Source: a virus | Strand: one strand, 5' to 3' | Virus record (IMG/VR): IMGVR_UViG_3300029309_000001 | Coordinates: 1 to 64,000 of that record | DNA: 64,000 bases | Shown here: piece after piece, positions 45,801-64,000 of the stretch | How the letters are laid out: every line of letters starts with the position of its first letter | Numbering within the stretch: the stretch's first letter is position 1 | Position numbers and translations under genes: made by a program | The notes under the pieces: model-generated | The model's database searches: none | The model's input: only the letters and a program-made list of their open reading frames with translations | Told to the model about the DNA's origin: nothing

Positions 45801-48800
45801 TTCAGCAATTCTTTCAGCTACTAAATTCATTGCACCAGGATTAGTAATATTTTCAATAGCTCTAAAGTATTGTTGAGACCTTCCTTGTAAAAATTTATAG
45901 TCTACTATATCTTTTAATACTTCTTCTAAACTTTCTGATGTAATAAATTCTCCTTTTTGTTCTGCTAAGAAATTTAAATAAGCCATAAAGCTTGGTTTTA
46001 ATTTTCCTATCTTTCTTCTATCAAAAGTACCAACCCTTTTACTAGGACTAATTTTTGCTTTAAATCTTTTACCACCAATTTCTATAATGTTATCTCCTTG
46101 CACATCTGAACCTACTTCTTCATATTCTACTTCAGCACCTAATATAATATCAGTACCATCCTTATTAGTAGGAACAAAATTTTCTGGACTAGTTATAACA
46201 TCAAGGTAATTTTTTAATAATTTTAATTTTTCTTTTTTTGTTTCAATTAATTCATTTTGTTCTGCTGTTGTTGCTTCTACTGCTATTTCAGACTCTAACA
46301 TTTCTATTTCTGTCTTAAGAGCTTTAAGATCTAAAAGAACACTGATGTCTGAAGAGTTCATATTACTTATAGCAGAATCGTTTGATAATCTTTGAAATAT
46401 ACTATTGTTTCTTTCTAATGCTCTTTTAAATGTTTCTTCAGTATACATCATAAGTTTTGTAGAATGATCCCAAGCTATTTGTCTAAGAGCTTCTTCATTA
46501 TATTCTTTACTACCTTGTGTATATTGTGATGCATCAAACGGATTAGGATATTTATCTTTTACAAGAGTATATGCATTTTCATATATATCTATTTTATTAT
46601 TAAACTTATCTATTCTTTCTCTTAGCTTACCATTTTTTACTTCATTTTTAAATTCTGGAAATGCAGCTTTTAATTCTTTATCAGACATTTTTAACCAATC
46701 AGTAAGTAAACCTTTAAATTCAGTATTTGTTCCAGTTTCAAATAAATAATGTAATTGAGAAAAATAAGCTTGATCTTTGTCATCCATAAAAGATAACATA
46801 TCTGAAGCATATGAAGATTCTAATAATCTTTGATTTAATTGTTTTTGTTCTGTTGCATTTAATCTTGTTTTACCAAATAATCTCATTGGATCTTCTGCAA
46901 GATTATTAAAAGCATCAATTGCTTTTTCTAAGTAAGCTTCTTTATTTTTTTTGTATTCTTGATATTTTGCTTGTGTTTCTTGACTCCCATAATTACCTTT
47001 TGTCCATTGATATAGTCTAGGTAAATATTCTGTAAATGTTCTTTGTACAGGTTGCACTAACCCGCCCATTAAAAATCCAGACATAAATACTTCAAATCCT
47101 TGTGGGCTTATTTGTGCTTTAATTGCATCATTTAAACTGGCATCAAATAAAGTACTTGTTACTTGTGATGGATCTAAAAATAAACCAGTATAATAATCTT
47201 CTGCTGTTTTAGCAATTACTTCTTGAGATATTTCTTGAAAACCTTCTGCAAAATTAGCACCTGTATATCTTAATGCAAAAGCACCTGCAGCACCAAGACC
47301 TCCTTTAATACCTCTGTTTTTTAATCTTTGTAAAAAAGTTGCTCCTCCATCATATGCAATTCTTCCTCCAAGATCACCCGCTTCTTTTGCAGCTCTTGAT
47401 TGAGCTGGTCCTACTTTACTATTAGCAAATATTCTTTTACCCATACCACGTTGATGTCTTGCTAATAATCTTCCTAATCCACCTGGCATACCTCTAAGTA
47501 TTGTACCTAATACAATTCTATTTGACATATATATTAATGGTGCATTTGCTGTTACAGTAGCACTAGATGCAGCAAGAGCTTTTTGTTGAATATCTTCTAA
47601 TTTTTCCATAGGTGGTTTTTCACCATTAACTCTTACATAATCATGATAAAGTTTATCTATCATTTCATTGTATACTATACCTCCTTCTAATTTAGATTCT
47701 GCTATAGCAAGATTTATTTCTCTAAAGTCTCTATAAAAACCACCAAATGTATTATTAATACTTTTAACATTATGTAAACCACGCAATGTACCTTTAGTAG
47801 TATTAAGAGTTCTAAGGGCATGCATAGTATTAGGAGCTAGAAAATTTAAAGCACCTCTTCCAGTAACACTAAAAAACTGTCTTGCATTTTCTATTTGTTT
47901 AAGATCTTGCATAAGTTGTGCACCTGCACGTATTCTACTTCCTCCTGGTACATTAAAAAAACTTTGTTTTAACGCATCTCTGTATCTACCACCAAAACCT
48001 GTAAATGCTTTTCCAAGTCTACCTACATTAAACGCAGTTCTTGATGCTGCTGCTGGAGCCGCACCTCCTCCTGAAAGTGCTGTAACACCTGCTAATACTA
48101 TTTCTTCTGCAGCAATATTTGCAATAATACCAAATGTATATCCTGAGTTTAATAAAAATCTATTTGTAAATCCTCCTAAACCTTTTTTAGAAGAATTACC
48201 TATACGCATAGCATCAACAAAAGCTTGACCTCCATCTGTATCAGCACCTGTATAATTACCACTCATCCAATCTCCTATAGCATCATATGTAGATGTAAAA
48301 CCTGTTTGAAAAGTATTCCACATCTGTTTTCTAGCTCTTTGATTCTCATCCCAAAATGTAGCTTTAGAATTATATATTTCTTCATTATTCCTATAAGGAT
48401 GAAATCCTAATTGATCATATAAATTACTAGCATAAAATCTATCAAAATTTGTTTCTCTAATCCCCCACTCCATATCTGGTCTATAACCTGGAGCAGATGC
48501 ATTTTTATTTGGAGTAGTCATTGCATCATAAAATCCTTGTTGTAAGAATTTTGCTTTACCATCTTTTGTAGTTAAATCTGCTGGTGTATTTTGTTCATAA
48601 GGATTATATGTTTGAGTTGCTAATCCTGGTTGTGGCATTCTAATATTATTTAAACCAGTAATAGGTGCTACACTATTAATAGGAATAGAAGCCTGTTTTA
48701 GCATTGATTCAAAAATAGGATCAGGACGCATTAAAGCAGAAAGATCACCTGGAGTATTAGGTTGTGTATATACATCTACCACATCTTCAAAATTAATATC

Positions 48801-48935
48801 AGATACAGCAGGTACATTATTTTCCATGCCAGTACTCACAAGAGATTGAGAAGCAGGCATTTGATTATTAACAGGTGATTCAGGACCTGACGGAAGGTTT
48901 ATACCTTCTTGTGTAGTTTCATTTATTTCTGCCAT
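33879..48935 (-). CDS. Virion-packaged RNA polymerase polyprotein (crAss-like), 5018 aa
   Basis: GIRIPSQ followed by SGADFDIDK (GADFDID at 37263-37283); zincin HEAFH at 42384-42398; Gly/Ala-rich hydrophobic N-terminal region. Confidence 0.88.
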   Translation of the reverse strand: MAEINETTQEGINLPSGPESPVNNQMPASQSLVSTGMENNVPAVSDINFEDVVDVYTQPNTPGDLSALMRPDPIFESMLKQASIPINSVAPITGLNNIRMPQPGLATQTYNPYEQNTPADLTTKDGKAKFLQQGFYDAMTTPNKNASAPGYRPDMEWGIRETNFDRFYASNLYDQLGFHPYRNNEEIYNSKATFWDENQRARKQMWNTFQTGFTSTYDAIGDWMSGNYTGADTDGGQAFVDAMRIGNSSKKGLGGFTNRFLLNSGYTFGIIANIAAEEIVLAGVTALSGGGAAPAAASRTAFNVGRLGKAFTGFGGRYRDALKQSFFNVPGGSRIRAGAQLMQDLKQIENARQFFSVTGRGALNFLAPNTMHALRTLNTTKGTLRGLHNVKSINNTFGGFYRDFREINLAIAESKLEGGIVYNEMIDKLYHDYVRVNGEKPPMEKLEDIQQKALAASSATVTANAPLIYMSNRIVLGTILRGMPGGLGRLLARHQRGMGKRIFANSKVGPAQSRAAKEAGDLGGRIAYDGGATFLQRLKNRGIKGGLGAAGAFALRYTGANFAEGFQEISQEVIAKTAEDYYTGLFLDPSQVTSTLFDASLNDAIKAQISPQGFEVFMSGFLMGGLVQPVQRTFTEYLPRLYQWTKGNYGSQETQAKYQEYKKNKEAYLEKAIDAFNNLAEDPMRLFGKTRLNATEQKQLNQRLLESSYASDMLSFMDDKDQAYFSQLHYLFETGTNTEFKGLLTDWLKMSDKELKAAFPEFKNEVKNGKLRERIDKFNNKIDIYENAYTLVKDKYPNPFDASQYTQGSKEYNEEALRQIAWDHSTKLMMYTEETFKRALERNNSIFQRLSNDSAISNMNSSDISVLLDLKALKTEIEMLESEIAVEATTAEQNELIETKKEKLKLLKNYLDVITSPENFVPTNKDGTDIILGAEVEYEEVGSDVQGDNIIEIGGKRFKAKISPSKRVGTFDRRKIGKLKPSFMAYLNFLAEQKGEFITSESLEEVLKDIVDYKFLQGRSQQYFRAIENITNPGAMNLVAERIAERLKALYDTNQARVEKLVKKHVSDLEKNELINQLAGQGVYPDAEQVVLFFKEGIIPTIFHSEAGQVTPTDNREKWDTIQNLIKTWQKTDASESTVEAGDALNEDEITQNDQFDELARSVETPTTITEETNAVLISKWKNYVKNSTGQKGKILSWEEWQNSKEAKQIKEVRNELLNYYNTNLTADQRNEKSFDAWLFENKRSPEVYSIINSKGGTYTDYVITNADAVSEENLQDAKRAGDELISSEQGVNIMKKLVSGQSQDDDSFYYELVGNDLKTNLYEQYKSVDPNGKILRDNYLTEAEAIAAQKFIVGLLPDNSTFTFQGQDLHFKQILLDNNDNQFIVITTPTSFAKGGKLYLRPLETANDRKTSFQVDDIGLYRPLDTTSLKATTKEQNILKLRQSEPIKMYAFRQDNESAQDAEVRLSDRLKELTPEQLNDLKLKVSRNANFESFKETPGGALPELGTTEFKNPKLRIGGEELTVAVMNGEEILGFLQGPTGAVLLDNTLKNVVNPLNLTEDQVDEYFEIYNTTKTQTRTKAEQLQIIKNNYASSILLNDKLKELLGGETEVVVNVNNIKGLNLRVSPGKMMYATKDNAATFSELVKNTIDDKGNFWILDNRSDGKGGVITNITDDELYNKTAAIAEAASEQTGYNPAYTLSRYVAVTRLDNGTFTFVELKADQLTAEEQNDMVLKILNTQDETIQENINDADEVVSDTRNFAFNEQLKDEFYIFGKSGEFIDIEVTARGDIQVIYRSTKRKDKNGKPLKQTFTINENDVKGVKENTNPFNAFVQAINNKIKFKEASTDVKLKLKLNKDNFRKSIPKEATIQDLSNTLTNFQKPLRSNIRLEAVIADSAQINNVINSSVLPEGLTKDVQDAINDTDQVMLNAEMDSPELTPEYMRELFKNDYQNVEEATITLIARKLAKGENLSNAERTIYQNKKNPDIRESINLLKLTYQSGVIEEGASLDVDSTSATTSVEKSESKKTYEKLEELEQQREDYADKIFNDAFNNVVPDRSKATPEQIREANKAAQEAEDNDFTLKDYDRQIQDLKKKLAPKTVDQIRFGEEHIEKIDTFISWAKTNLPEFIQIQDIQDLSARLKGNGKTAGMFVLELNSLANNIEGNIYVGAQTPFKYHEAFHGVFRMLLSEAEIKKYLAIAKKEKRVQLRSEGKTLSQALNELKSSHSIYNNLTREQLEERLYEEYLADKFEEFKINAKSTKTNSEVKSLFNRIIEWIKAVIKNFTKNELTTLFENIDAGKYKTASVQNNRFTSEMVENGTTSAAPKVIPIDSYPYSYVDPFTGQEIVSLANTYMTANDQRKMIATIASLYRSYIERGDLLSLSKKEILDKAISDYIKLLNPRRDFYLSEQNGLAYKSIKRKLKSYYNSLKDNRDIIAENVSQYLSTFDNTFNLEQEAFEDHENLDETNVRRVDEYGKTANQIGGYTSLPQMLREFIATTVLEEQDLFGNKETLDGIPIVTTVDYNFAYNGILKALANKTTDLQMLQALATFSSTNVHTAAVVNNIFKEIGINDPSELLDLETLPAVANPNFLQKVIKGFNQFKVDYMMNHKDAETGVVYIYAANKKDDGNMQLDQWSEHFEQVYPQLLSNAGNKKAVDFLNLFRSKLVNPKERSRQKLDEEAKNASKNLYDLLGIQINAETIKYSMLSNKPIRKKWEDAIVELGIAAGADPISAEDITEIRNSISRGENLFLDNQTNIPENEIQEQNTAEELPESTGVRSRLRKLANTNSFFDESVGATVFRDSKGNFIYAHQMPTFHLVKVAEMNAKDWAQTKIKENTFFNKNYLLNNDKFLALVGEGKLKVTRFIGSKEGQLDENEFGTVVENRGLSINQKAGVSFGDSSSAEFAAVVINSYVEKYNRTNQEVPLNDYFNNETGKDDKYIEAPIDLKVMSDASTNDFVALPVEKFVEQDDAGDLKLTDKALNALVYNLLQSEYNRVKKELDPNTAETDTIELFNTSKIKKGVEVGHRGKRFVRSKGFITKRKSKIKALVDIQAPKMSNQTANDIVNNKQKIILRSGKAQAKINLPAGEQASVLLPYKVDNETKYANVVVKNRGLVSVSNIDPLAYIDQLGDAVSKKPIAGKKKQNTAKIDNTTYYFQRLEDAKFFNGLNLYAYEFITADTAEEANIETGVEEVQTTEGTEQQVEFFESDNFIEETLINAAKEGLNFDQAVERIGEDKLKDIIEERMLVDFFDFRRLLTNTKALDKISVEIKEGLGTMVRPQKGKRGKSFYQVTKKGREAMKLFNLKENDLDYNLLQIYMHQFINARSMNDVLLGDHARLFTSFTDESKRAKMQNAAGPNAASALTAPSLGITHTFNSNDSISLFTYHDPQSINKFAGTTTDETDAFMVGTVKAFRYMFFGIGRLSIEQANLLDKIQTGEPIGVDEMWGNVALGTEGYKKLNALINSKKFVYGDGQTYLKMSFFVLTPELTSYKDRFGQWQPLPQMEELHNLRMKMENFEKGKETVALAIPTSGSKMMKKNVISADEMYSNKSIEELQLEYGDRKIDTGLNPKFMRLQVVNPSNKIEIVDPRQMKQLVLSEQSDNVEVVINGKTTKLSEVREAYNKSVSAQTILRFKNRRNLVFDMGTALDEIGKSKDLGKTTPNLRSFLRYALAGLESSQAKTQMLEFFSFDEAGNPKYDLNNPITIEKFQQLFLAYFSKGILAGKQHGVSLALASSYGSKVMRVVKKLDENGQPLETEIIRMDAYKKNPSKYKPVDKFVNDKFVDLKIGDVILQELQHNVYDPKTKTYYSEFMMAPHHREVQKFIKPGDTIPQVVAEALGIRIPSQDKHSAISLRLVDFLPVYYGSTAMFPKELIEISGADFDIDKLYTALKEFYYKKGQFQEYGKGITEKDRYVDYIRYVISQANKKGSPINEAIVNWSTTDSPFLDAEEIEMMQDNMARETANQITLNVNAFNKAYDVRVINYIIQLNDQITDEQIVKLYNKNEDLYGALQSLGLPVTLKEYKDYVAKNGEPYEAAINNDILDQRIALVANEGVVKPIDNREIGYGNEPANLEPLYEIRDLLQAEFPEIADFANPEDVDPDSLLGLVETWASIKTGEGAIGAVVRPNVVLSMLGVNNIKIRNEALGPTGIVRFNRRTFDTFATPYTLDGKPKDKATRTQYAISALITMATDNAKERLADVLGINRSSLSIVASWTSLGVPLETSILILKNPVIKLGYDLALNKSKPTDPGIVSILKKRQRFLQLNYEINTQPVTDQVLRAAIKNDWVDPTQPLTQGFGKNITGQTPEEYSDKDASIEYAINQQIINGKRISDYVGYLGSLVDLLSGFGQSMESLDSKALDFKKLGLDLNNNDFKNLTDQNYMSITEGLDDSLTDGVPVPFDARPIIKGNDFRATYYKIFKEFTEDLIPAVFITRTKPFQRIKDTVLANMVNNSMIIDPKRKLQIEKDILSYLTIKAYRQFLMNTPNGIQKLGSLQNGMIYDDIGGENTLTIEEVVSSIRNYFASKGQENYFIDKFVYLDLASNENNKAGLNRLKGNNWTKMSDTKAVDLQASFAEIYSIPALREHAYNLMHYLLVKDGMQFDRNTFLSAVPAFMFDQVLRAISTGHKMFKSNTASDTNLVFGMSQEELNNDFTQGYLKANKNGYLIPTVRRITKDTSNAAHIDSDGNLQLNIFNGVSSFINKKGQKVVKGKKFKLQRKGASIFVNTKSNEYKKLIANASYLSSIGIKFNRVEDQGRVYLEMILPLYLRNEYQDQFGSTYVNYFELNQVYREKRFSQTGDILNMLEGEENIVKGFQATYTPVELVGSNQNTAVAFVNGEVPTHDALKKKYKSDAVDNLIAGLDLKDLEEQLAGLDLSNIQDLYDQAVNTGENVQSTNKGITIDGKSLENTDLKKESDVTDVNIDQAPQEIQDQQLAATSMLLNMLNAKQNDKSSKSDTEIKKIRDWWADPATNRYEALNQTKRSNLEGLLEEFNNFDGTAERFIEIINNCK

Positions 48936-52320: not shown

Positions 52321-55300
52321 TTACCACCATCCTCCATTCCTTCTTTCTGCTAGTGCTGCTCTTAATTCACTACCATATTTAGCTTCAGTACCACAATTAG
52401 TACCTATCTCATCAGCCTTTGGAGTTACTCCATCAGGACAACAGCCATATTGTGTACTTCCACAACCTCCTGTTATTTCATCTGGTTTATTATTATTATT
52501 TACATTTCTATTATTATTTACATTTCTATTATCAACATTTATATTATTTCCTTGATAACCAGGAATGGTTTGGTTACCTTTAGGTTGATTTTGAGATTTA
52601 AACATATCATTAACAACTAAACGTGCATTATTCATACAAGCAATTCTTTCTGCTTCAGTACTTATATTACCACATCTTTGTTCAATATATTGATTTTCTA
52701 AAGCTATTCTTTTATCCATTTGTGATTGTGGATCTACTACATTATTTGCAAAGAAATCTTTAGGGTTTGTAATTTGTATATCTCCACCAAAACCTGGACG
52801 TACATTATAATTAGGAGTCATAGTATTTAAATTATAAGTATTAGATCTATTAGTTTCAGCATTAGCACGTGCATCTGCTATTTGTATTCTAAGTTGATTT
52901 TTAGCATTATCATAATTTTGATCTACCGTATTAACTTCATCCATATACTTTTTTAATGCATCTTGATTTAATACATCTACATTTGATGCTACTCCTGCAT
53001 TAAATTGTTGAGCTTGATTATAAATATCTACATTATCATTTTGAACTTTATCTAATGCTCCTGCTATTTGTTGACCTGCTGTTCCTTGTATTTTAGAAAG
53101 TACAGATGCTAATCCTTGACCACTAGTCATTTGCATAGCCATATCTCCAGCAATTTGAGCTTGTTCTGCTATTGCAGCAATTTCTCTTGTAGGATCTTTA
53201 TAAGCTGGATCCATAAAGTTACCTGTAAAAGATTGTCTACTTGGATAATATTTATTAAGATCTACATCAGATAATGCATCTAACTTCATTATATCTTGTT
53301 TCCAATATTCATTTGGTATAGGATCTGGCATTTTAAATTCTCCTTTTTCTATACATTGACAAACATCAGTATCATATCTACCACCTTTTGTTTCACAATC
53401 TACTTTAGCTTTTGCTTGATCAGGTTTTACTTGACCGTTTGCATCAAGATAACATGTTTCAACATTTCTTACTTTCTTTTCTCCTGGTGTATTATTTAAT
53501 TGCATTATTTGACTATTAAATGTATCACCATATTTACCATCTAAAGCAGACCATCTATCTTCTCCCATTAAACCTGATCCACCTTTATCACTTCCAAAAG
53601 CTTCTAAATTAACATTACCTAATAAATTTGACCAACTATCATCTCCATCAGCAGACATTTTTTCAGCATGTTTTTTTAATCCACCTAAACTACTAAATGT
53701 AGCTTGTTTATTTAACACCATATTCATAAGTTCATCTTTATCTGTAGGTAATGGTTCAAAGCCAGCATCAGGATATTTTTTCATTATTTCTTCATAGACT
53801 AATCTATACATACCATTAGGATCTCCATCGCTAAAACCTCCACCTCTTCTTGGCCTATCCCATGCATCATGTTGTTTAATATCATTACCAGTTACTGTTT
53901 GACCATTAGGTAAAGTAATTGTTATACCATCTAATGCTCCTGCTTCATGCATTAAATACTTAAACTTTTGATCAAGCATAAACATTTCTTCATATTCTTC
54001 TTGAGTCATTTCAGGTATTGCTTGAAGATTAGAATATTTATCACGTGCTTTTAAATAAGATTCATATCCAAATTTATTTACTTTGTCCCAATCTTCAGAA
54101 TTATATAAATCTAACATTTGATTATATCTATCCATACCATAAATTTTTTCTCCTCCTTCATCAAATGTTTGTAACTCTTCATAATCTACATATCTATTTT
54201 CAAAATCTTCTCCTCCATATAAAAATTCATTTAATTTATTATTATATAAACCTGCAGGAATCATATTACGTGAATCTGGTGAAGCTGCATTATATAATCC
54301 AGCAGCTACCATACCACCTTTTTGTGCATAGTCTGCTTGCGCATCTTCTTTATATCTTCCATCATACATAGGATCAGGTTTACCTTGTGATTTTTTAACT
54401 AATTGTTCTGCCAATGTAACTAATGATCCTTGATTAATTCCTTTGTTTATATCATTACCATAACTTATTTTTGGATACTTACTTGTAAAATCTTGTTGAT
54501 TAAAAGGTACCATATCTGATACTTCTTGTAATCTATCTGAAGGTAATTTTGAATTTACTTGCATACTTTCAGGAGATTCAAATTGAGCTTTATGCAATCC
54601 TCCACCAAGTTTAAAACCAGGTCCATATAGACTAGGAGTAACTGTTTGTCTATATATCATAGGAGGTGGGGGATTAAATTCACCTGTTGATGGATTATAA
54701 TTAACACCAAATAATTTATTATCAATAGGAGGTTGATACATACTATCTCTATTAATCACTCTTATTTGATTTGCTTCATTTAATGCTTGTTTAGTATCTT
54801 CTATTTCTTTTTGATAAGCATTTAACATACCAGCAACTTCTCCTCTATTTTGAGCTTTAGGTAATGATCCACCATACATTGCCATCATTTGTTGTGGTGC
54901 CATCATACCTTGTGGTGGCATTCCTCCTCCTTGTGGTGGAGCTTGTGGCATAGGTGGCATTCCTCCTGCCATAGGTGGTCCTTGTGATGGAGGACCTCCT
55001 TGGCCACCTGTAAAGTTTTGTAATGATAATATTTGTTTTTGTTCTTCAGGTGGTAACTGATCTATCATTTGCATCATAGCTTGTTCTTCATTAAGTTTAT
55101 TTACTTTTTGAACAAACTGCATTGGATCTATTTTTTTAGACATTAAAAATGGATAAGCTGCTAAAGGCACACCATCTTCAAATTTCTTTTTACTTTCTGA
55201 TACAAATGCTAATTCAGATAATTTCATTTTATTTTTTTCTAACATTAACTCTGCACTTCTTGTAGTTATATCATCTACAAATTCATCATTTAAAGCTGAA

Positions 55301-55692
55301 TAGTATTTGTTTAATGGAAATTTTTTAGATACAGCAGCAGGAGTCATTTTCTTTTTAGAATTAATATTAAATCTAGTAAGCTGATCTTTATTAAGTTTCA
55401 TTTTAGCAGTATCTGAAAAAATAAATGATTGAGGAGGTAAACTTAATGCAGTTCCACCTTGTGGATGTCTTTTACCACCAATGTTATACAGCTCAAAGTT
55501 ACCATCATTAGTTAAATCAGTTAATGCTGTCTCACCTTTTTCTGCTTCTAAATTAGCAAAGGATCTTGGTATAGGTCCTAATGAATTACCATAAGGTGCT
55601 CCACCTGTAGCCATAACTTTTACAATTTTACCATTTTTAAATTTATATCCGTTTGGTAAATTTCCTATTTTTACTTTTACTTTTTTTCCCAT
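52321..55692 (-). CDS. Large modular virion protein with repeated xxGG motifs
   Basis: N-terminal EAEKGE...GKRHPQGG domain, P/Q/M-rich linker, Q/A-rich helical C-terminal region. Confidence 0.75.
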   Translation of the reverse strand: MGKKVKVKIGNLPNGYKFKNGKIVKVMATGGAPYGNSLGPIPRSFANLEAEKGETALTDLTNDGNFELYNIGGKRHPQGGTALSLPPQSFIFSDTAKMKLNKDQLTRFNINSKKKMTPAAVSKKFPLNKYYSALNDEFVDDITTRSAELMLEKNKMKLSELAFVSESKKKFEDGVPLAAYPFLMSKKIDPMQFVQKVNKLNEEQAMMQMIDQLPPEEQKQILSLQNFTGGQGGPPSQGPPMAGGMPPMPQAPPQGGGMPPQGMMAPQQMMAMYGGSLPKAQNRGEVAGMLNAYQKEIEDTKQALNEANQIRVINRDSMYQPPIDNKLFGVNYNPSTGEFNPPPPMIYRQTVTPSLYGPGFKLGGGLHKAQFESPESMQVNSKLPSDRLQEVSDMVPFNQQDFTSKYPKISYGNDINKGINQGSLVTLAEQLVKKSQGKPDPMYDGRYKEDAQADYAQKGGMVAAGLYNAASPDSRNMIPAGLYNNKLNEFLYGGEDFENRYVDYEELQTFDEGGEKIYGMDRYNQMLDLYNSEDWDKVNKFGYESYLKARDKYSNLQAIPEMTQEEYEEMFMLDQKFKYLMHEAGALDGITITLPNGQTVTGNDIKQHDAWDRPRRGGGFSDGDPNGMYRLVYEEIMKKYPDAGFEPLPTDKDELMNMVLNKQATFSSLGGLKKHAEKMSADGDDSWSNLLGNVNLEAFGSDKGGSGLMGEDRWSALDGKYGDTFNSQIMQLNNTPGEKKVRNVETCYLDANGQVKPDQAKAKVDCETKGGRYDTDVCQCIEKGEFKMPDPIPNEYWKQDIMKLDALSDVDLNKYYPSRQSFTGNFMDPAYKDPTREIAAIAEQAQIAGDMAMQMTSGQGLASVLSKIQGTAGQQIAGALDKVQNDNVDIYNQAQQFNAGVASNVDVLNQDALKKYMDEVNTVDQNYDNAKNQLRIQIADARANAETNRSNTYNLNTMTPNYNVRPGFGGDIQITNPKDFFANNVVDPQSQMDKRIALENQYIEQRCGNISTEAERIACMNNARLVVNDMFKSQNQPKGNQTIPGYQGNNINVDNRNVNNNRNVNNNNKPDEITGGCGSTQYGCCPDGVTPKADEIGTNCGTEAKYGSELRAALAERRNGGWW

Positions 55693-55694
55693 AA

Positions 55695-58600
55695 TTATAT
55701 AATTTCTATGTCTGCTCCTGCAGCTAATAATTCATAATACATATCTGTATCAATACTTACTGTTTTTTCTTTTTGTTCACCACCATCTTTAAAGAAGAAT
55801 CCTAAACCTCCTGAATACTCCCAATTACTTGTTGAAGGATTATAAGTAACACCTGCATTTAATAATCCATATCTTGCTTCTGCTCCTATTTTTAATCCGT
55901 CATTGCTTTTATAATCTGCAAATAAATCTAATTGACCTTGAGGAACATAATCATGTTTATCTTTATACATAAATCCAAGACCAGATTTATAAATTGTTTG
56001 AGGAACTGGTGTTTTAAATTGTAAACCTGCTCTTCCACCATAATAAGGACTAACCATTTCTTGATCATTAAAGTCAATACCACCATATCCTTCTAGCATT
56101 ATACCAGCAGGTCCTGAAGTAGGTAACCCATAAAAATCTTGATCAAGTCTTAATCTAGCTCCTATGTCACCTTTAGCTGTCAGTTTAGTAAAAGGATTTC
56201 CTTCATTATCCATTTCTGTAGTTTCAAAAGGGCTAAAGTTAGTATAAACACCTCTTTTAAATCTACCACCTCCTGCATCTCTGCAACTACCACCCCAACA
56301 ATTTACCATATCTGCTCCAAAAAATAAATTTAACGGATGCTCACCACTTTGATATTCAACACCAAATCTTGGATTTGTTAATCTTGTTCCTCTAAAACCA
56401 TATTGAGCATTAGGTAATTCACTACCATATTGACTAAAACCATCTTGTCTTGAAATTACTTTACTATCTGTAAACATAAGTCCTGTGTTTTCATCTTCTT
56501 CTCCTCTAGATAATGTATCAGCTGCCATTACATTGTATGCATCATCTGAAGATCTAGTAGCTAAATTATAAGCTTGTTCTTTTCCTTCATTTATTTGATC
56601 AAATATTTTATTACCAATACCTGCTGCTTCTTTTAAAAACTTTGCACCTTTTTCAAAACCTTGAACTACTTTACTATCTCTAACATAGTTAAGTTTATTT
56701 CTCATTCTTTCTCCAAAAGTATCACCCCATCTATCTCTTCTGTCTTGTCTTCTTTGTTTTCTTAAAGCTTTTTCTTCTTCTTTTGCTGCTTGCATATCTT
56801 CATAAGATTCAAAACCTGCTTCTATAGCTTTATCTTCTCTTCTTTTATCTCTACGTACACCTCTAAGTTGTCTTCTACTTAAAGTATTACCATCTCCTTC
56901 AAATGCAAAATCATCAGTAACATCAAACTCTGGTGTAACATTTGCTTGATCAACAAACATATCTTGTTCTGTATTAAATACATCACCATAGGATCTATTG
57001 ATAGAACCTTCTTTTGGTTTAAATGTATTCATATCTATATCTCTTCTTCTAACATCATATGTATTAGCTGCAGATTTTTTCATTCCTTGATTAACTGCAT
57101 TAGCTGTAAACATATCACCTACATTACGGTTTATTGTACCAGTCTCATCTGAAAATGCATCACCTACTACATTAAATTGATCTGAATCAGGAGTGTTAAA
57201 TCCTTGATTTTCTTCTGTTGCATCTACCCATTGACCTCCTTGCCATACATCACCATATGAACTAATAGCTCCTTCTTTAGGCATACCAGCTTCATAATCA
57301 AATTGTTCTGGATTTACCATATACATTGCTGCTGCATCTTGTGCACCATTTTGTGCTTTATATAATGATCCACCAGTTTGTTTAAAATTACTAAATGCAT
57401 TATAATTTATACTAGGTGTAGTGGTTAATCTTTGTGGTGCATATAATGGATTTACAATTGCACTTGAAAAATCTTTATTTCTATAGTTTTTTAACATATC
57501 TAATTGTGTTGTTTGTTTGCTAAAAGGATTAACATTAAATAATGGTGTTTTAAAATTATCTGCTTGATTTAAACGAGTATTAATTAAATTAACACCTTTT
57601 TGATTTAATGCAGGAAAAGTTTTATTAAGTGTTTTTAATTGATTAAAGTTTTTAGGTAATACATTAACAAGACCTGTGTTACCTACACCACTTAACTCAA
57701 GAGCACCAAGTGCTAAATTACCAAAACCTTCACCAGTTCTACCTTCAGAAAAATCTGTATAAGCTTCAGGTAATGTATTTCTTAAAGCTTCTTGTGACCA
57801 ATATGCATTATTTAATTGACCAAATGTTACTGGTGCTCCTATAGTTGAACTACCTGGTACAGTTACACGTGCAAGTTTATTTGCAAGACCAAGACCTCCT
57901 CTAACTACACCTACACCACCAACTAAAGCAGGAATGTAACCCATTAAACTATTCATTTCATAATCAACTGGACCTTGATCAACAAACATTGGGTTTAATA
58001 AATTTTCGTTATCACCTATACTTAAAAACTCATTGCCTGTATTATAACCTATAGTAGGTCCACCATAACCTCCTTTTGATCCTTTAAAATATGGATTAAG
58101 ACTAGTTAAAACTGCATCTTCATAATTGTCTGGTGTTATTGTTTGATAATCTGATTTATAATTAGCTACAATTTGATTCCTAAAATCTTCATAAGACATA
58201 GGTTCTCCTTCTTTAAGAACTCCATCATTTTGATTTAATATAGGTTTAGCTTTTACAATAGTTCCACCACTTAAATCACTATTATTAATTCTTTTAATAT
58301 TACCATCTGCTGTCCATTGTTCTCCTGAAGCTAAGTTAGGATAATTTACACCAGGTGTACCAATTTGAGGTTTATAATCTCTTACTAATTCTTCATAGTC
58401 TTTAGCTATTATATTTTCATATAATGAAGATCTATTAGCATCATAAAAAGTATTTTCTAAATTTAAATTATTTTCATCACCCATTTCAGCATCTTTTCCA
58501 AAATTATATATGCTAGTTAAAGGTTCTCCATTTACAGTAAGTTTGCTTACATCTTGTAAATTTAAATTATATTGATTAGCAAAATTTATAACATCTTTTA

Positions 58601-60767
58601 AGTTAGAAAAATTTCCTGTTCTTACTTCTTTTTGTTCTACAGTTTCATTTCTATATGGATATACTTGTCCTTCATTATCAACAGTCCAAAATACATTTGG
58701 TGTTGTTTCATACTGTAAAAATGGATCTCTTGATAAATTCCATTCTTGTGCTTGTTTATTTAAATTATATAATTGTGTTCTTCCTTCTCTTGTTGAAGGG
58801 TTAGGAAAATTTGGAAAGTCTCTTATAATGTTTGAATAAAGATTAAATTCATCAGCTTGTGGCCATGTAGATTTATCTTTAATATTTATACTTCCAGCTC
58901 TATAATTAGAATTTCTAGCATCTCCATATCCTGCTCCAAGAGCAAGTAAATCTTCTTGCATTTTTAACCACAATTCTAATTGTTGATCTGTCCAATCAGG
59001 AATTTCACTTTTATTTTGAAAATGCATTAGATCACCACCATCACGTAAAAATGAAAAAGTAGGGATAGAACCACCGTATTTTAAATCAGGATCAAATTCC
59101 ATATCATCAAGATTAGCATCTTCAGGTACACTTTCATTATTTTTTTCTTGTGATGTAGGTTCATTACATTTACAATTTGCTGCATCCCAATCTCCAGGTG
59201 GTGTTAGCTGTGCACATTTTTCCTGTAACTCAAAACAATCATTTGCAGTTTGTTGAGAACTTTTTTCATAAGTTATGTTAGTAGGATTTTCTGCATCAAA
59301 AGGAATATACTTATATTTTTTTTGTCCTCTTTCATCAACACCATCAAATACATAAGAACCTTGTATGCCTGTATTATCTTCATTATGAACAAGCATAACA
59401 GCATCAGGTACATATTCTGTTTCAATCATATCACCTAATAGCTTATCTCCTTGATAAGTTATATTACCATCCATATCCATACTAGATATTTGATATAAAT
59501 CAGGATACGCAGCAGTTCTATTGTTAACATATTGATTATACTCATTCATTCTTTTCTCTTCGTATGTTATGAGTTTATCTGGTTGTGTTGGATCAAAGAA
59601 TCTAGTTTCATCAAATGGATTTGTTATTTTAAATTGTTGATAATTTTCTTTACCCCATCTATTATTACCTGCACTTGGAAATGCAAGCTTTGCCATTTGA
59701 TTTATTTCTTTTTTAGAGGCATCAGGATTTTGTTCTCTTAAAACCTTTTTAAAATTTCTAAATTCTTTTTTAGTTATTTTATTTGGATCAACATCAAAGT
59801 TTTGAAAATCTTTAATTCCACTTTGAAATAAATTTACTATATCACTTAATATGTTAGTATCTTCTCCTGCATTATACATCATAAAAGGTTTAGTATCTAC
59901 TTTATTAGATCTATCACGTCTTCTTTTACCACGTTTAGTTTGCCAATCTGCAAATTTATTTAATATTTGATTTTCTTGATTATTTTTTGCATCAAATATA
60001 TCTGTATTATTATCTAATCCTTCACATACTCCTGTTAAAGAATTATAATTTCCACCTTTTGCAGCACACTCATCTGCTTTTGCAACCTCTGACTCAACTT
60101 CATTTATTATATCTTCTTCACTTTTATTGTTATCTTCAGCTCCTGGATAATTAGTTTCTGCATCTTCCATTCCTTCAACATCATCATTATCTCCATCATC
60201 TTGGAATTTTTTTAAAGATCCTCCATATTCAAATGTAGGCATTTGTTGTTGAGGTATTATAGCTTGTTGAGGTTGCATAGATTGTTCTGGTGCTTGTTGT
60301 TGCATAACCATTTCTTCTTGTGGTGCAACAGCTGGTTCATTTAAACCAGGCATTTGTAAACCTTCTTGTATTTGTTCTACAGTTTCTTTTGATTCTTCAT
60401 AATCAGAAACACTTTGATTTTGTTTACTATAAGAACTGTCATTATTTTTTAATGGTCCCCCTTTTTCATAACTATCACAAACATTTTGTTCAGTGCATTT
60501 AAAATCATTACTCCAGCAATATCCAATATTACCTGACTTATCATTTATACACTTTTTCATTCTATTTGATATGTCAAAAAATATACAAATACCACATTTA
60601 TCTTCTGAACTTGCTTTACCATAATTAAATCTAGAAATAGCTCTTTCTCTATTATCTAAATTTAAATCTTGATCAATAGTAGCATCAGGACATGGCGTAA
60701 CTTGTTGAGTATCACCACCTTCTTGATAAACTTCTAAAGTTTGTATGTTAGGGTATTTTTTTGCCAT
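55695..60767 (-). CDS. Large modular virion protein with repeated xxGG motifs
   Basis: Cys-rich N-terminal domain, at least 8 GG-type linkers and a C-terminal beta-strand module. Confidence 0.75.
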   Translation of the reverse strand: MAKKYPNIQTLEVYQEGGDTQQVTPCPDATIDQDLNLDNRERAISRFNYGKASSEDKCGICIFFDISNRMKKCINDKSGNIGYCWSNDFKCTEQNVCDSYEKGGPLKNNDSSYSKQNQSVSDYEESKETVEQIQEGLQMPGLNEPAVAPQEEMVMQQQAPEQSMQPQQAIIPQQQMPTFEYGGSLKKFQDDGDNDDVEGMEDAETNYPGAEDNNKSEEDIINEVESEVAKADECAAKGGNYNSLTGVCEGLDNNTDIFDAKNNQENQILNKFADWQTKRGKRRRDRSNKVDTKPFMMYNAGEDTNILSDIVNLFQSGIKDFQNFDVDPNKITKKEFRNFKKVLREQNPDASKKEINQMAKLAFPSAGNNRWGKENYQQFKITNPFDETRFFDPTQPDKLITYEEKRMNEYNQYVNNRTAAYPDLYQISSMDMDGNITYQGDKLLGDMIETEYVPDAVMLVHNEDNTGIQGSYVFDGVDERGQKKYKYIPFDAENPTNITYEKSSQQTANDCFELQEKCAQLTPPGDWDAANCKCNEPTSQEKNNESVPEDANLDDMEFDPDLKYGGSIPTFSFLRDGGDLMHFQNKSEIPDWTDQQLELWLKMQEDLLALGAGYGDARNSNYRAGSINIKDKSTWPQADEFNLYSNIIRDFPNFPNPSTREGRTQLYNLNKQAQEWNLSRDPFLQYETTPNVFWTVDNEGQVYPYRNETVEQKEVRTGNFSNLKDVINFANQYNLNLQDVSKLTVNGEPLTSIYNFGKDAEMGDENNLNLENTFYDANRSSLYENIIAKDYEELVRDYKPQIGTPGVNYPNLASGEQWTADGNIKRINNSDLSGGTIVKAKPILNQNDGVLKEGEPMSYEDFRNQIVANYKSDYQTITPDNYEDAVLTSLNPYFKGSKGGYGGPTIGYNTGNEFLSIGDNENLLNPMFVDQGPVDYEMNSLMGYIPALVGGVGVVRGGLGLANKLARVTVPGSSTIGAPVTFGQLNNAYWSQEALRNTLPEAYTDFSEGRTGEGFGNLALGALELSGVGNTGLVNVLPKNFNQLKTLNKTFPALNQKGVNLINTRLNQADNFKTPLFNVNPFSKQTTQLDMLKNYRNKDFSSAIVNPLYAPQRLTTTPSINYNAFSNFKQTGGSLYKAQNGAQDAAAMYMVNPEQFDYEAGMPKEGAISSYGDVWQGGQWVDATEENQGFNTPDSDQFNVVGDAFSDETGTINRNVGDMFTANAVNQGMKKSAANTYDVRRRDIDMNTFKPKEGSINRSYGDVFNTEQDMFVDQANVTPEFDVTDDFAFEGDGNTLSRRQLRGVRRDKRREDKAIEAGFESYEDMQAAKEEEKALRKQRRQDRRDRWGDTFGERMRNKLNYVRDSKVVQGFEKGAKFLKEAAGIGNKIFDQINEGKEQAYNLATRSSDDAYNVMAADTLSRGEEDENTGLMFTDSKVISRQDGFSQYGSELPNAQYGFRGTRLTNPRFGVEYQSGEHPLNLFFGADMVNCWGGSCRDAGGGRFKRGVYTNFSPFETTEMDNEGNPFTKLTAKGDIGARLRLDQDFYGLPTSGPAGIMLEGYGGIDFNDQEMVSPYYGGRAGLQFKTPVPQTIYKSGLGFMYKDKHDYVPQGQLDLFADYKSNDGLKIGAEARYGLLNAGVTYNPSTSNWEYSGGLGFFFKDGGEQKEKTVSIDTDMYYELLAAGADIEII

Positions 60768-60797
60768 TTACTTAATTAATTAATTATAAGCAGTATA

Positions 60798-60811
60798 CAT
60801 TTATAATATAC
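60798..60811 (-). promoter_or_regulatory. Candidate phage late promoter (copy 3)
   Basis: GTATATTATAAATG, 30 nt upstream of the ATG at 60767. Confidence 0.55.
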
Positions 60812-60846
60812 TAAATAATTAGCACATTTTCTAATTATATTACTGC

Positions 60847-63800
60847 TTATATCATACCTAAAGACTTTAAATGTTTAGTTCCTGCAGGTGTAAGTTTATC
60901 TCCATTTTCATATTTTTTAATAAGTCTATCTGTTACTTTATCAACTTCACCTCCCATTTGCTTTTTAGTTATTCCTTCATTAAATTTTTCTATATATTCT
61001 TGAGGAGTTTTATTAGCTTGTCCTGCATTAACTCCATATTTATCTGGAAATACAGATTCTAAACTATTACCATCTCTAAGTACATAACCTAAATATTCAC
61101 GTGTTCCTTGTCTTCCTAAAAAGTTTACTAATGCTGCAACTTCTGTTGTAGTATATGGAAAACTAGGTATTTGTTTGCTATAAATTTTATATAAATCTAT
61201 ACCACTTTCTCTTAGACCTTTTACACCTTCTAACTTACCTCTATATCTATTTTCAAAATATTTATTCTGTGCTTCTATATCATTAGCAAAATCTTGTCTA
61301 CTTCCATCATACATTGTAGAAATTTCACTAAACCTTTGTCCATATAAACCTGTAGCAGTTGATTCTGGATTAATCATTAGTTCACCATTAAGACTTTCTG
61401 CATAAGCAACTCCTTGTTTTAATTTTTCAAAATCAACCCAATTTGCATCTAATTCACTTGGTGGTATTAATTCTTTAGTATCTGGATGATAATATATTCT
61501 TCCATATATATCAAATGGTTTTCCTACAATACTTTCTCCTTCAATATTAAAACCTAAACCTGTTGGTATATCAAAATCATATTCATCATAATAAGCATAA
61601 TAAGGAAGCTCTCTTTCATCATCCATACCTCTTGATATTTGATAATTACTAAGATTAAAACCTCCTGCTGCAGAATCATTTATTTGCCATTTATCTTTTG
61701 ATGCATCTTTTGTAATACCCCTTTCTATTATGTCATCCATAATATCATCAACATTATTAAAAGAATAATAAACAGACTTATCATCTTCTACTCCTAATGT
61801 AGGTTTAAATTTAGATTTAGAAACTGTATTATGTTTTTGATCAAAACCTAAATACATACCCCATAAATCTTCTGAAGCATTTTTAATATATTCTCCAGCA
61901 TTAGGATTATCTTTAAATCTAGGATGATTTTGAAAATCATCAAATGATGTTTCTACACCATCCCACATAAAAGGTTGTTTTTCTCCATAAAGCATTTCTA
62001 CCATTGCTTGATCCATATTATAACCTATAGGTGTTACAGATTTATATAATCTATTTGCTAACCATCCAGGATTATTTTGACCTTGCATTTGAAACTTAGG
62101 TAATCTTTTATTATATTTATCTTTTATTGATCCACCTGTCTTTTTTTCTTCTAAATTATTTAACTCTAAACCTTCTAACGTAGCTGCTGTTATAGGTACA
62201 CCAGTTAACATTTTATTTAAAAGATTTGCAATAAGTTTATTATTTTGTTTAGTATCTTTTGTTTGATCTAATATTCTCATAACATATCCATCATAATCTG
62301 TACCAGGTAGTAATTTAGCATTATCAGCACGTACCTTAGAAATTAAATCTCCTGTTATATTATCATAAGCATCTGATATATATTTATTATCTAATAGATA
62401 TTGTTGTAACTCTGCAACATGAGCAGTAGGCTCTATATACAAAGTTCCTGGTGATTCAAAAGATGGTGAATTAGTTTTTTTTGGAGTAACTGTTTTTATT
62501 GGTTCGGTCATATAATCTTGAGTTTCTTTATTTCTTACTCCAAAACCTTTATCTGCATTACCCCATAGTGAATAACCATCATCAATTAACATTTGATTTT
62601 TTAATAATGCAGATGATGTAAGACCACCATCATCAACAAATTTTAAATTTGGTGAAAACCAATTAGTATTTGCAGCTCCTAATCTTTGATCAAATATTTT
62701 TGTTGCATCATCTGTTATAGGTATAGTAGTAGATCCAAAACCAAAAACATTTTTTTCAGTATTGCCAGAATTTCTTATTAATTTTCCTACATAGTCCAGT
62801 GCATGTTGATCTTCATGTCTAAAAATATTTCTTAACCAATTTTCTGGCAATGCATTTGTATTCATACTTACAAAAGGTAATATACCTTTTTCTAATTGAT
62901 TATAGTTTTCACCTGAAAAGAAATACGGACTATCATCTGGACCATATGAATTAAAATTATTTATAATAGGTATTTGTTTATATGTTGCAATAAATTTATC
63001 TACATCTGTATCACTTGCATTTGGACCTAAATAATTTTCTTTTATTCTTCTACGTCCTTCTGTAGTATTCATTCTTTCAAGAATATCATTTCTTATATTT
63101 AAATAAGATGTATTTCCTGTTAAACTTTTAGACATATCTTTAACGTCCATTGAATGACTACCTGCACCTAATACTGGTTTACCCATTTGAAGTGTACTTA
63201 TATATTCAGGATTATATATAAGACTTTTTAAATCTAATGGTTGAACCATAGAAAAATCTTCAAATAAACTTGTTGTTGGTGTTCCTACCTCTCCTGTTCC
63301 ATAAAGATCTTCAAATGCATTATAATTAACATTTCCCCTAGCTTCTCTACCTATTGCTTCATTATGTATTCTTATTAAATCATCATCTAGATCATCTTTA
63401 AAAAATGCTAAATCTTTTTTACTTTGATCAACTATATCTGTAAAAGTATTACCTGTTAAACCATGATAATTTTGAAAGTATCCTGGTTGTGCATTATAAT
63501 AATCTTTTCCAACATTTGATATATTTTTTGATGTGCCACCTAACCAAGTTGGTAAATAACTACGAAGATAATCTTTTGTATCTTTTACTGTTTGTATTGT
63601 TTTTTTTATTTTTGCAGGATTAAACAAATCTTTATATTGTGCTTTTGGTAATGAACCACCAAGTTTATATAAATCTTTTCCTTTAATAGGTATTATTCCT
63701 GGAGATTCTATATCTAAATTATATTTAGATAAATAACTATCAGGCACTTTAACTCTTATATATTGATTTCCTTTTTGATCAGTAATAATTTCATAAGGAT

Positions 63801-63999
63801 AATCTTTTCCAAAAACTTTATTAATATCTTTTTTAAGTTGTTTTTCAGTATTTTTATTTAATATACTTTGATACCTTTTTGGATAAGCAGATGGATTACT
63901 AATAGCAGTTACATCATCAGGATTATATCCTTGATTTGTTAAAAAATTATTTCTAATTTCTTCTATTTTATTTTTTTGTTCTTGAAAACCTCCTGAAAT
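60847..63999 (-). CDS. Large modular virion protein with a zincin motif and a lytic-transglycosylase-like C-terminal domain, 5'-truncated by the window edge
   Basis: Frame is open from 63999 through the GTG at 63747. HEDQH at 62803-62817; C-terminal VAYAES....NPESTATGLYGQ. Confidence 0.7.
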   Translation of the reverse strand: MSGGFQEQKNKIEEIRNNFLTNQGYNPDDVTAISNPSAYPKRYQSILNKNTEKQLKKDINKVFGKDYPYEIITDQKGNQYIRVKVPDSYLSKYNLDIESPGIIPIKGKDLYKLGGSLPKAQYKDLFNPAKIKKTIQTVKDTKDYLRSYLPTWLGGTSKNISNVGKDYYNAQPGYFQNYHGLTGNTFTDIVDQSKKDLAFFKDDLDDDLIRIHNEAIGREARGNVNYNAFEDLYGTGEVGTPTTSLFEDFSMVQPLDLKSLIYNPEYISTLQMGKPVLGAGSHSMDVKDMSKSLTGNTSYLNIRNDILERMNTTEGRRRIKENYLGPNASDTDVDKFIATYKQIPIINNFNSYGPDDSPYFFSGENYNQLEKGILPFVSMNTNALPENWLRNIFRHEDQHALDYVGKLIRNSGNTEKNVFGFGSTTIPITDDATKIFDQRLGAANTNWFSPNLKFVDDGGLTSSALLKNQMLIDDGYSLWGNADKGFGVRNKETQDYMTEPIKTVTPKKTNSPSFESPGTLYIEPTAHVAELQQYLLDNKYISDAYDNITGDLISKVRADNAKLLPGTDYDGYVMRILDQTKDTKQNNKLIANLLNKMLTGVPITAATLEGLELNNLEEKKTGGSIKDKYNKRLPKFQMQGQNNPGWLANRLYKSVTPIGYNMDQAMVEMLYGEKQPFMWDGVETSFDDFQNHPRFKDNPNAGEYIKNASEDLWGMYLGFDQKHNTVSKSKFKPTLGVEDDKSVYYSFNNVDDIMDDIIERGITKDASKDKWQINDSAAGGFNLSNYQISRGMDDERELPYYAYYDEYDFDIPTGLGFNIEGESIVGKPFDIYGRIYYHPDTKELIPPSELDANWVDFEKLKQGVAYAESLNGELMINPESTATGLYGQRFSEISTMYDGSRQDFANDIEAQNKYFENRYRGKLEGVKGLRESGIDLYKIYSKQIPSFPYTTTEVAALVNFLGRQGTREYLGYVLRDGNSLESVFPDKYGVNAGQANKTPQEYIEKFNEGITKKQMGGEVDKVTDRLIKKYENGDKLTPAGTKHLKSLGMI

Positions 64000-64000
64000 T

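Follow-up and report, generated by a model that had tools for sequence, protein, structure and literature searches.

Three giant late proteins with a recurring peptide

The IMG/VR record IMGVR_UViG_3300029309_000001 is a single viral contig of 119,026 bp (100% complete according to CheckV, GC content ~29%), and the stretch of DNA analyzed here, called the window below, is its first 64 kb. At the right end of the window three successive minus-strand genes encode giant proteins that we call A, B and C (Table 1), and a short peptide with the consensus Y-G-G-S-L-P-K-A-Q recurs in all three. They are mosaic multi-module proteins of a marine crAss-like phage, and this short linear motif joins their modules. 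An earlier sequence-only reading of the window had noticed the recurrence, and every string it quoted is present in the translations at or near the place it had assigned to it. Its count of three giant proteins was correct, but one of them was cut by the window edge; A is really 2226 amino acids (aa) long and has an additional motif copy beyond that edge.

Searched as the regular expression G[GS].[LIVM]..[AF]Q in a six-frame translation of the whole genome, the motif has 8 hits, all of them in A (2), B (4) and C (2). Shuffling the residues of A, B and C (n = 2000) gave a mean of 0.06 hits and a maximum of 2, and none is found in the 78 other open reading frames (ORFs) that reach 100 aa (31,715 aa in total), where 0.23 would be expected. 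The motif is real and restricted to three ORFs, and on both its enrichment and its confinement the sequence-only reading was right. Comparing 8-residue windows without the regular expression, and counting those that share at least 6 identities, gave 54 pairs within A, B and C, compared with 4-30 pairs in 20 shuffles and 28 in a 5072-aa set of neighbouring giant proteins; 30 of the 54 are from the GGSLPKAQ-type motif, and other short motifs link at most 3 sites. The same reading had counted bare xxGG sites as part of the code, and this part is weaker: GG dipeptides number 11 (11.6 expected) in A, a mildly raised 20 (13.0 expected) in B and 22 (9.4 expected) in C, which is Gly-rich. Bare xxGG sites are not enriched as such, yet some of them are invariant in homologues (B G103/G104 and B K1660/G1662/G1663/E1664), and so is G30/G31 at the start of the C-family domain.

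The late genes, all on the minus strand, run in the order terminase region, portal, major capsid protein, tail genes, 2528-aa protein, A, B, C and ORFs of 1105, 5018 and 1867 aa. By comparison with the gene order of crAss-like genomes, the slot of A, B and C is therefore between a virion protein in the tail muzzle position (the 2528-aa protein) and the block of giant RNA-polymerase-associated ORFs. The sequence-only reading had called A, B and C virion proteins outright; gene order, which is the basis for this, makes it probable that they are cargo of the virion and enter the host on ejection.

Table 1. Positions in the record of proteins A, B and C, of their motif copies and of three other late genes (pLDDT, predicted local distance difference test score)
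Feature	Position	Strand	Remarks
Protein A	60847..67527	-	2226 aa; only the C-terminal 1050 aa (60847..64000) inside the window
Protein B	55695..60767	-	1690 aa
Protein C	52321..55692	-	1123 aa
Motif copy in A, GGQLPKAQ	65680..65703	-	genome position, outside the window
Motif copy in A, KLGGSLPKAQY	63637..63660	-	aa 1290-1297; conserved in homologues P0015, P0016 and P0018
Split motif copy in A, GGSI-KDKYNKR-LPKFQ	62089..62136	-	aa 1798-1813; 7-residue insert
Motif copy in B, EYGGSLKKFQ	60201..60224	-	aa 182-189; C-terminal to a Q/P-rich stretch; invariant Y181, G182, G183, S184, L185, Q189 (n = 11 sequences)
Double unit in B, YGGSIPTFSF then RDGGDLMHFQ	59016..59078	-	aa 564-573, then motif aa 577-584 (59016..59039)
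Motif copy in B, QTGGSLYKAQNG (core GGSLYKAQ)	57351..57374	-	aa 1132-1139; invariant G1132, G1133, L1135, A1138, Q1139
Motif copy in B, QYGSELPNAQY	56403..56426	-	aa 1448-1455; invariant G1448, E1450, L1451, P1452, Q1455
Motif copy in C, MYGGSLPKAQN	54850..54873	-	aa 274-281; C-terminal to a P/Q/G/M-rich stretch; inside pLDDT<50 segment 253-290
Motif copy in C, KLGGGLHKAQF	54583..54606	-	aa 363-370; inside pLDDT<50 segment 313-516
Degenerate copy near the C-terminus of C, KYGSELRAA	52363..52380	-	
2528-aa 'virion structural protein'	67527..75113	-	
Major capsid protein	91578..93218	-	
Portal	95428..98211	-	PHROG 6547

The motif at module junctions and among relatives

Where do the copies lie with respect to the modules of these proteins? 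In homologues of A and B, 25.8% of 1157 internal ends of BLAST high-scoring segment pairs fall within 10 aa of a motif, compared with 2.0% of random positions (the pairs are not independent of one another). The largest insertions in the alignment of B homologues follow residues 574 (530 columns; motif at 577), 1081 (224 columns) and 1447 (206 columns; motif at 1448), so two of the three are no more than 3 residues from a motif, and in P0005 the 206-column module inserted at 1447 is flanked by two motif copies. One upstream module, ...FGQSNFMSRDGGQLPKAQ, precedes three unrelated sequences in A, P0022 and P0026, and the switch is exactly at the motif. These breakpoints and whole-module insertions bear out the earlier idea that the motif punctuates interchangeable modules. 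Two junctions of A itself have lost the motif that relatives still carry there (KKKKHGGED compared with KKRDGGSLPKAQ, and NYQSTGEVLPN compared with LQEDGGSLPKAQDGD). A single-linkage clustering of the inter-motif modules collapsed to one component and was uninformative, and tandem paralogy of A 617-1297 and 1298-1990 was rejected (best BLASTP E = 0.083).

An AlphaFold2 model of C (61-sequence alignment, mean pLDDT 68.9) is folded at residues 35-229 and 517-1035 and has low-confidence linkers at 230-290, 313-516 and 1036-1108; in a model of A 290-640 (mean pLDDT 58) the motif is in an unstructured tail at 295-351. All three motif copies covered by the two models are in segments with pLDDT below 50 and none is inside a folded domain, as would be expected if the sequence-only reading placed the motif correctly between domains. 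By these models the motif lies in disordered linkers. Foldseek searches of the PDB with the C model and the A 290-640 model returned nothing at E <= 0.001.

What are the modules that the motif separates? Homologues cover from 8 to 77% of A, so their architectures are extremely mosaic, and the modules in relatives include LysM, YkuD, SLT, SET, ART-PolyVal (PF18760) and zincin-like HExxH domains, an assortment that, judged from the sequences, fits the cell-wall-breaching and effector functions of ejected proteins. A, B and C have no Pfam or PHROGs family above threshold, and neither YkuD nor LysM was detected in them; searching PDB sequences with profiles of A1, A2 and A3 gave only LysM (contributed by relatives) and low-complexity polyQ/polyP matches. 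A is itself mosaic, with HEDQH at 62803..62817, a zincin-like HELGH module and a C-terminal module that contains AESLNGELM (61375..61401) and is the part common to most homologues. One relative with the HELGH module carries a Pfam SLT domain, which was not mapped to the C-terminal module of A. B has a Cys-rich module at its N-terminus and, further on, Gly-rich hydrophobic stretches (~aa 943-1040), after which come a conserved module at aa 1140-1447 and a C-terminal one at aa 1456-1690.

The motif is conserved where its surroundings are not. Relatives of B (n = 10, 35-80% BLASTP identity) have 3-5 copies each, and in the 11-sequence alignment (35-88% identity) the motif residues are invariant at three copies (Table 1), G577, G578, L580 and Q584 are at least 90% conserved, and the flanks vary; at the copy at 1132 the upstream flank is variable (mean column conservation 0.36) and the downstream module is conserved (0.89). 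The eight copies in this genome differ in their synonymous codons. Among 50 distinct exact GGSLPKAQ instances (of which one copy per IMG/VR locus was ascertained by a pattern in which TCN and TTR are fixed) there are 39 different 24-mers; the core 24-mers, which come from AT-rich genomes, are on average 86% identical and the 30+30-nucleotide flanks 36%. A logo of 138 distinct instances reads [K/F/Y/M]-[K/R/Q]-[Y/D/T]-G-G-[S/D/E/Q]-L-[P]-K-[A/F]-Q-x-[G/Q], with no conservation past about -5 and +3. The regular expression sets five of its positions (G0, G/S1, L3, A/F6 and Q7), and the independent evidence for those five is the orthologous alignment. These comparisons show that the motif is kept by selection on the peptide. 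Copies in which the two halves are separated, such as the one in A (Table 1), are also found in C-family proteins, for example YGGEYGYLPKAQ and YGGQKDLPKFQ.

How widely is the motif distributed? Homologues of A have it in 23 of 24 cases (63 copies in 51,977 aa, ~1 per 825 aa), and three IMG/VR contigs whose B homologue is 43% identical to B have 4 copies in the A homologue, 3 in the B homologue, 1 in the C homologue and none in the flanking ORFs. The motif is therefore conserved, and confined to the same syntenic proteins, while the modules around it are swapped, which is the behavior in related genomes that the sequence-only reading anticipated. The C family is far larger, with 1753 representatives (50%-identity clusters) at E <= 1e-3 whose common part is mainly residues 36-280; of the best 150 the regular expression is found in 27 and absent from 123, and some of the others have the insert variants. 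For this N-terminal family there is neither a Pfam nor a PHROG model nor a fold match in the PDB, and 50,697 GenBank phage records contain no member of it; a tblastn search of these records with C was also negative. Its signature in C (aa 35-229; 55000..55590) is G-x-R-H-x-x-G-G-T-P-L-x-L-P-x-Q-S-F-I-F-S.

A DNA pattern for GGSLPKAQ matched 45 stretches of IMG/VR (GC 27-41%), every one of them in frame in a stop-free frame of at least 256 aa, with further copies in the same ORF at 26 of the 45 and often with 2-3 adjacent motif-bearing ORFs. With a looser pattern, five other 97-100% complete records (114-246 kb) have their matches on one strand only and clustered in one block, except that in one record the block wraps across the record ends and two matches are outlying; there are 2 to 8 motif copies per genome. 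Of its 29 matches in 596 Gb of cellular genomes, 24 are in frames shorter than 140 aa, none is accompanied by a further copy and the majority lie in GC-rich DNA; this is about chance level, and the GGSLPKAQ pattern extended by x-G has no match there.

Among the cultured phages searched none has the motif. Lbo-JY46 has three small proteins (495, 674 and 484 aa) with no copy in the syntenic slot, and the match of A to phage records by tblastn is only to a 'tail protein' of Cellulophaga phages phi17:2 and phi4:1 by way of the HELGH module; the 15 late proteins gp036-gp050 of phi17:2, including the one so matched, have no copy. A full-text literature search for the motif strings found no phage paper.

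The genes near motif loci that are common to at least 3 loci include a cluster of large proteins (up to ~2500 aa) in 11 loci and clusters of ~900-1100 aa; a second context consists of portal, terminase, PhoH, exonuclease and small ORFs with no assigned function. In four crAss-like IMG/VR contigs (L009, L019, L041 and L053) the motif-bearing giant ORF is upstream of PhoH, terminase and portal and not beside the RNA-polymerase block. One of the IMG/VR records with the motif is 245,646 bp long (CheckV 100%, 4 clustered copies), twice the size of the others, so the motif is not limited to ~120-kb genomes.

What may read the motif

Selection at the level of the peptide, acting on particular side chains of a disordered linker, implies a reader of the motif; what might it be? 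Our first choice, a tentative one that is still more apt to be wrong than right, is that the motif is a site-specific processing site. A sequence-specific protease, either an unrecognised phage enzyme or a host enzyme (the latter is considered because no phage protease is detectable), would recognise it and cut the A, B and C chains into separate modules, after packaging or after ejection; the periplasm would then be where cell-wall modules act, and the cytoplasm where the other effector modules do. The scissile bond would be the one after Q or the one after GG. We rank proteolysis first because there is one site per junction, because copy number varies with module number, and because modules that would act in different compartments (LysM, YkuD, SLT, SET and ART-PolyVal in the relatives) are on one chain; several copies per chain and 2-8 per genome are better fitted by one site per junction than by one tag per protein.

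Precedents for such processing come from two systems. The polyvalent-protein paper predicts processing into separate domains, with a zincin metallopeptidase as the likely enzyme (PMC5512222), and in SPN3US gp245 cuts giant-phage ejection proteins after A-X-E, 13 of the 14 sites serving to remove N-terminal propeptides (PMC10052503). The motif resembles the prohead-protease codes of T4 and giant phages in being a short code found repeatedly in proteins inside the head or ejected from it, at more than one site per substrate. It is unlike them in length (~11 residues with an invariant Q at the last position, compared with 3 residues with P1 = Glu), in being placed at inter-module junctions where the SPN3US sites mostly bound N-terminal propeptides, and in that their protease gene (T4 gp21 family) is identifiable and none is detectable here. 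The cleavage motifs of T4 gp21 and phiKZ gp175 are further short-code precedents. The proteases of adenovirus and of African swine fever virus (pS273R) cut at xGG/x, where the slash marks the cut, and the Gly-Gly pair preceded by a non-random residue is a likeness to these sites; however, the strongest conservation here (L, K, A/F and Q) is C-terminal of the pair and extends six residues past it.

Several observations weigh against processing. Support for cleavage is entirely positional and no cleavage has been observed, and some 11 constrained positions with tolerated inserts of 1-7 residues between GG and LPKAQ are, from the sequences, unusual for a single protease subsite. Ten protease or cross-linker families were sought in the complete genome. 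Pfam S78, S77, S49, Trypsin_2, C48, C5, C39, Prok-JAB and Transglut_core have no match; S21 also has none, but its positive control was silent in every control genome, which makes that result uninformative. For the prohead-protease families among them (PF03420, PF04586, PF00716 for S21, and PF01343) there is no match at E <= 1, and neither of the two clan-CE families, PF00770 and PF02902, has any. The two analogies drawn in the sequence-only reading fare poorly: against that with adenovirus and African swine fever virus stand the lack of a detectable adenain (Peptidase_C5) or Ulp (C48) homologue, conservation mainly after GG and the ordinary number of bare GG in A, and against that with large-phage head processing the lack of a detectable HK97-type, T4-type or S49 protease. 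Pfam and PHROGs scans of 28 late-region proteins likewise revealed no protease above threshold. The HELGH module of A is the only protease candidate (Reprolysin_2 E = 0.006; Reprolysin_2, Reprolysin_3 and M91 are all below the Pfam cut-offs), and its model (mean pLDDT 58) has no Foldseek structural match. Among 5 other complete genomes with the motif it could be detected in just 1, so that this zincin-like module does not track the motif, and it is also present in phage phi17:2, whose scanned late proteins carry no motif. The tail of the HELGH module was not seen in its own active site, which in a low-confidence model with an unstructured tail says nothing either way. Finally, the available part of the crAss001 structure paper makes no mention of proteolysis, cleavage or a protease, and describes the cargo protein gp45 as one chain that spans tail and capsid (PMC10172136).

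The wider picture that would follow from processing is one that we put forward as speculation, and it may well be wrong: a clade of uncultured marine crAss-like phages would build its injected arsenal as cassettes by means of a dedicated 'junction code' (YGG-S-LPKAQ), with modules acquired, lost or exchanged at the motif in evolution and released during infection by an enzyme, possibly the host's, a polyprotein strategy in a tailed-phage ejectosome.

Could the motif instead be bound and never cut? As a docking motif it would attach to a repeated virion site (portal, tail-barrel rings, muzzle or inner capsid surface) or to an assembly chaperone, and would load and order the cargo chains, with multiple copies adding avidity; we regard this as possible but doubtful. 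A short conserved peptide under peptide-level selection in predicted disordered regions is like many binding motifs, the L-x-x-[A/F]-Q spacing after the GG break would fit a short helix, and no protease was found among the families tested. There is a precedent in crAss001, a member of the same virus order: short cargo segments, namely residues 214-245 of gp45 and a helix of 14 residues without assignment, are attached there to ring and muzzle proteins in 12 and 6 copies (PMC10172136). On the other hand, a loading tag need not be tied to module junctions or vary from 2 to 8 copies per genome, A has lost two copies that its homologues kept, and AlphaFold places no copy against a neighbouring domain. 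The motif is also not needed to load the C family, since the regular expression is missing from most of the best representatives (above). Nor is the motif like an N-terminal targeting peptide of the T4 type, as the first copy in complete ORFs is never less than 54 residues from the start. It is on junction position and variable copy number that docking is weaker than processing.

A third explanation, which we consider unlikely, requires no reader at all. The motif would be a tolerated flexible joint whose ~24-nucleotide coding sequence serves as microhomology for phage recombinases that swap cassettes, and it would persist by travelling with the cassettes. The breakpoints and insertions at the motif, the two copies that flank the inserted module in P0005, the greater identity of the core 24-mers than of their flanks and the extreme mosaicism of the homologues all agree with this. 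However, synonymous positions vary freely while the peptide is fixed, both halves are kept in the split copies, and the L, K, A/F and Q side chains, none of which a hinge needs, do not vary between orthologous sites even at 35% identity.

We leave a small chance that the explanation is outside those considered here. Least probable of all, and purely speculative, is a modification or cross-link site that would fix the ejected conduit in the envelope by covalent linkage of the conserved K and/or Q (a transglutaminase-type K-Q isopeptide, or K joined to peptidoglycan by a YkuD-type L,D-transpeptidase): the core conserves both K and Q and some relatives have YkuD and LysM modules, but Transglut_core has no match in the complete genome, A, B and C lack detectable YkuD and LysM, and some copies have H, N or R in place of K.

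Whichever way it is read, a motif of 9-11 residues that predicts domain boundaries in otherwise unannotatable giant ORFs marks where evolution swaps effector modules and is a handle for telling processing from docking; should it be a processing site in phages with no protease of their own, it would point to a host enzyme on which they depend. It is also a cheap clade signature, given the contrast between the IMG/VR matches and the cellular genomes (above). In crassviruses the cargo protein amounts to megadaltons, and how it is loaded, how it is ordered and what becomes of it after ejection are open questions (PMC10172136).

Known systems and neighbouring genes

How do A, B and C compare with proteins already described? 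By position they are the counterparts of crassvirus cargo proteins and by architecture those of polyvalent proteins, insofar as such analogies hold. Like crAss001 gp45 and gp46, they are encoded between a large tail-tip (muzzle-like) gene and the giant RNA-polymerase-associated genes (PMC10172136), the portal is in the same PHROG, and the chains are long and partly disordered (C by its predicted model). Unlike gp45 (90.8 kDa) and gp46 (60.2 kDa), they are mosaic and 1.4-3 times larger, and a repeated junction motif is not described for crAss001 in the available part of that paper (PMC10172136). Sequence similarity to crAss001 is also not detectable; in the phage records, tblastn with A, B and C as queries found no crAss001 or other Crassvirales match, only a match to a Cys-rich domain and the Cellulophaga 'tail protein' match.

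Polyvalent proteins are found in phages and conjugative elements (Iyer, Burroughs, Anand, de Souza and Aravind 2017, PMC5512222), and A, B and C are like them in having many unrelated modules per putatively injected polypeptide, extensively shuffled across relatives, and in the kinds of module that the relatives carry (above). The available part of that paper defines no cleavage or linker motif, and the word 'linker' occurs 0 times in it (PMC5512222). The conserved junction peptide is the new element, which is in neither the cargo-protein nor the polyvalent-protein description.

The portal protein is 21-26% identical to those of crAss-like phages of Bacteroides, Flavobacterium, Cellulophaga and Azobacteroides, and its best cultured match is that of Leptolyngbya phage Lbo-JY46 (33% identity). 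Two unannotated ORFs of 446 aa (93974..95314) and 223 aa (93279..93950) are between the portal and major capsid genes, an interval that is the classic place for protease and scaffold. The 446-aa ORF was set aside as a candidate for either role, as what the ESM Atlas gave for it, leads of 0.81-0.83 to scaffold proteins and to a cluster of Prp cysteine proteases, is weak and not usable as evidence. A conserved neighbour gene as protease or receptor was rejected as well; the neighbours common to at least 3 motif loci include no protease. The single 5018-aa ORF (33879..48935) occupies by position the virion RNA polymerase slot, and its sole similarity in Lbo-JY46 is to a 1552-aa protein (21% identity, E = 4e-4); a plus-strand ORF of 169 aa nested in it (36211..36720) is probably spurious.

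Several features of individual modules were also observed. A second short motif, (R)G-x-[IV]-N-Y-N-A-F-x-[DE], has 3 copies, in B at aa 1120-1125 (57393..57410) and in A at aa 757-765 (outside the window) and 1397-1405 (~63310..63340). The copy in B is 6 residues upstream of a KAQ-type junction motif, and the two modules of A that have it are not detectably paralogous (BLASTP E = 0.083). The Cys-rich N-terminal module of B (aa 26-106; 60450..60692) is invariant in all 11 B-family sequences and has a weak tblastn match (29% identity, E = 1e-6) to a 'high potential iron-sulfur protein' gene of Actinomycetia phage DSL-LC01. The Gly-rich hydrophobic stretches of B (57888..57941 and neighbourhood), GYIPALVGGVGVVRGGLG and GFGNLALGALELSGVGNTGL, resemble glycine-zipper or membrane-inserting segments and would fit a channel-forming ejection protein; the relative P0192 (L028) has similar Gly-rich hydrophobic stretches after its motifs.

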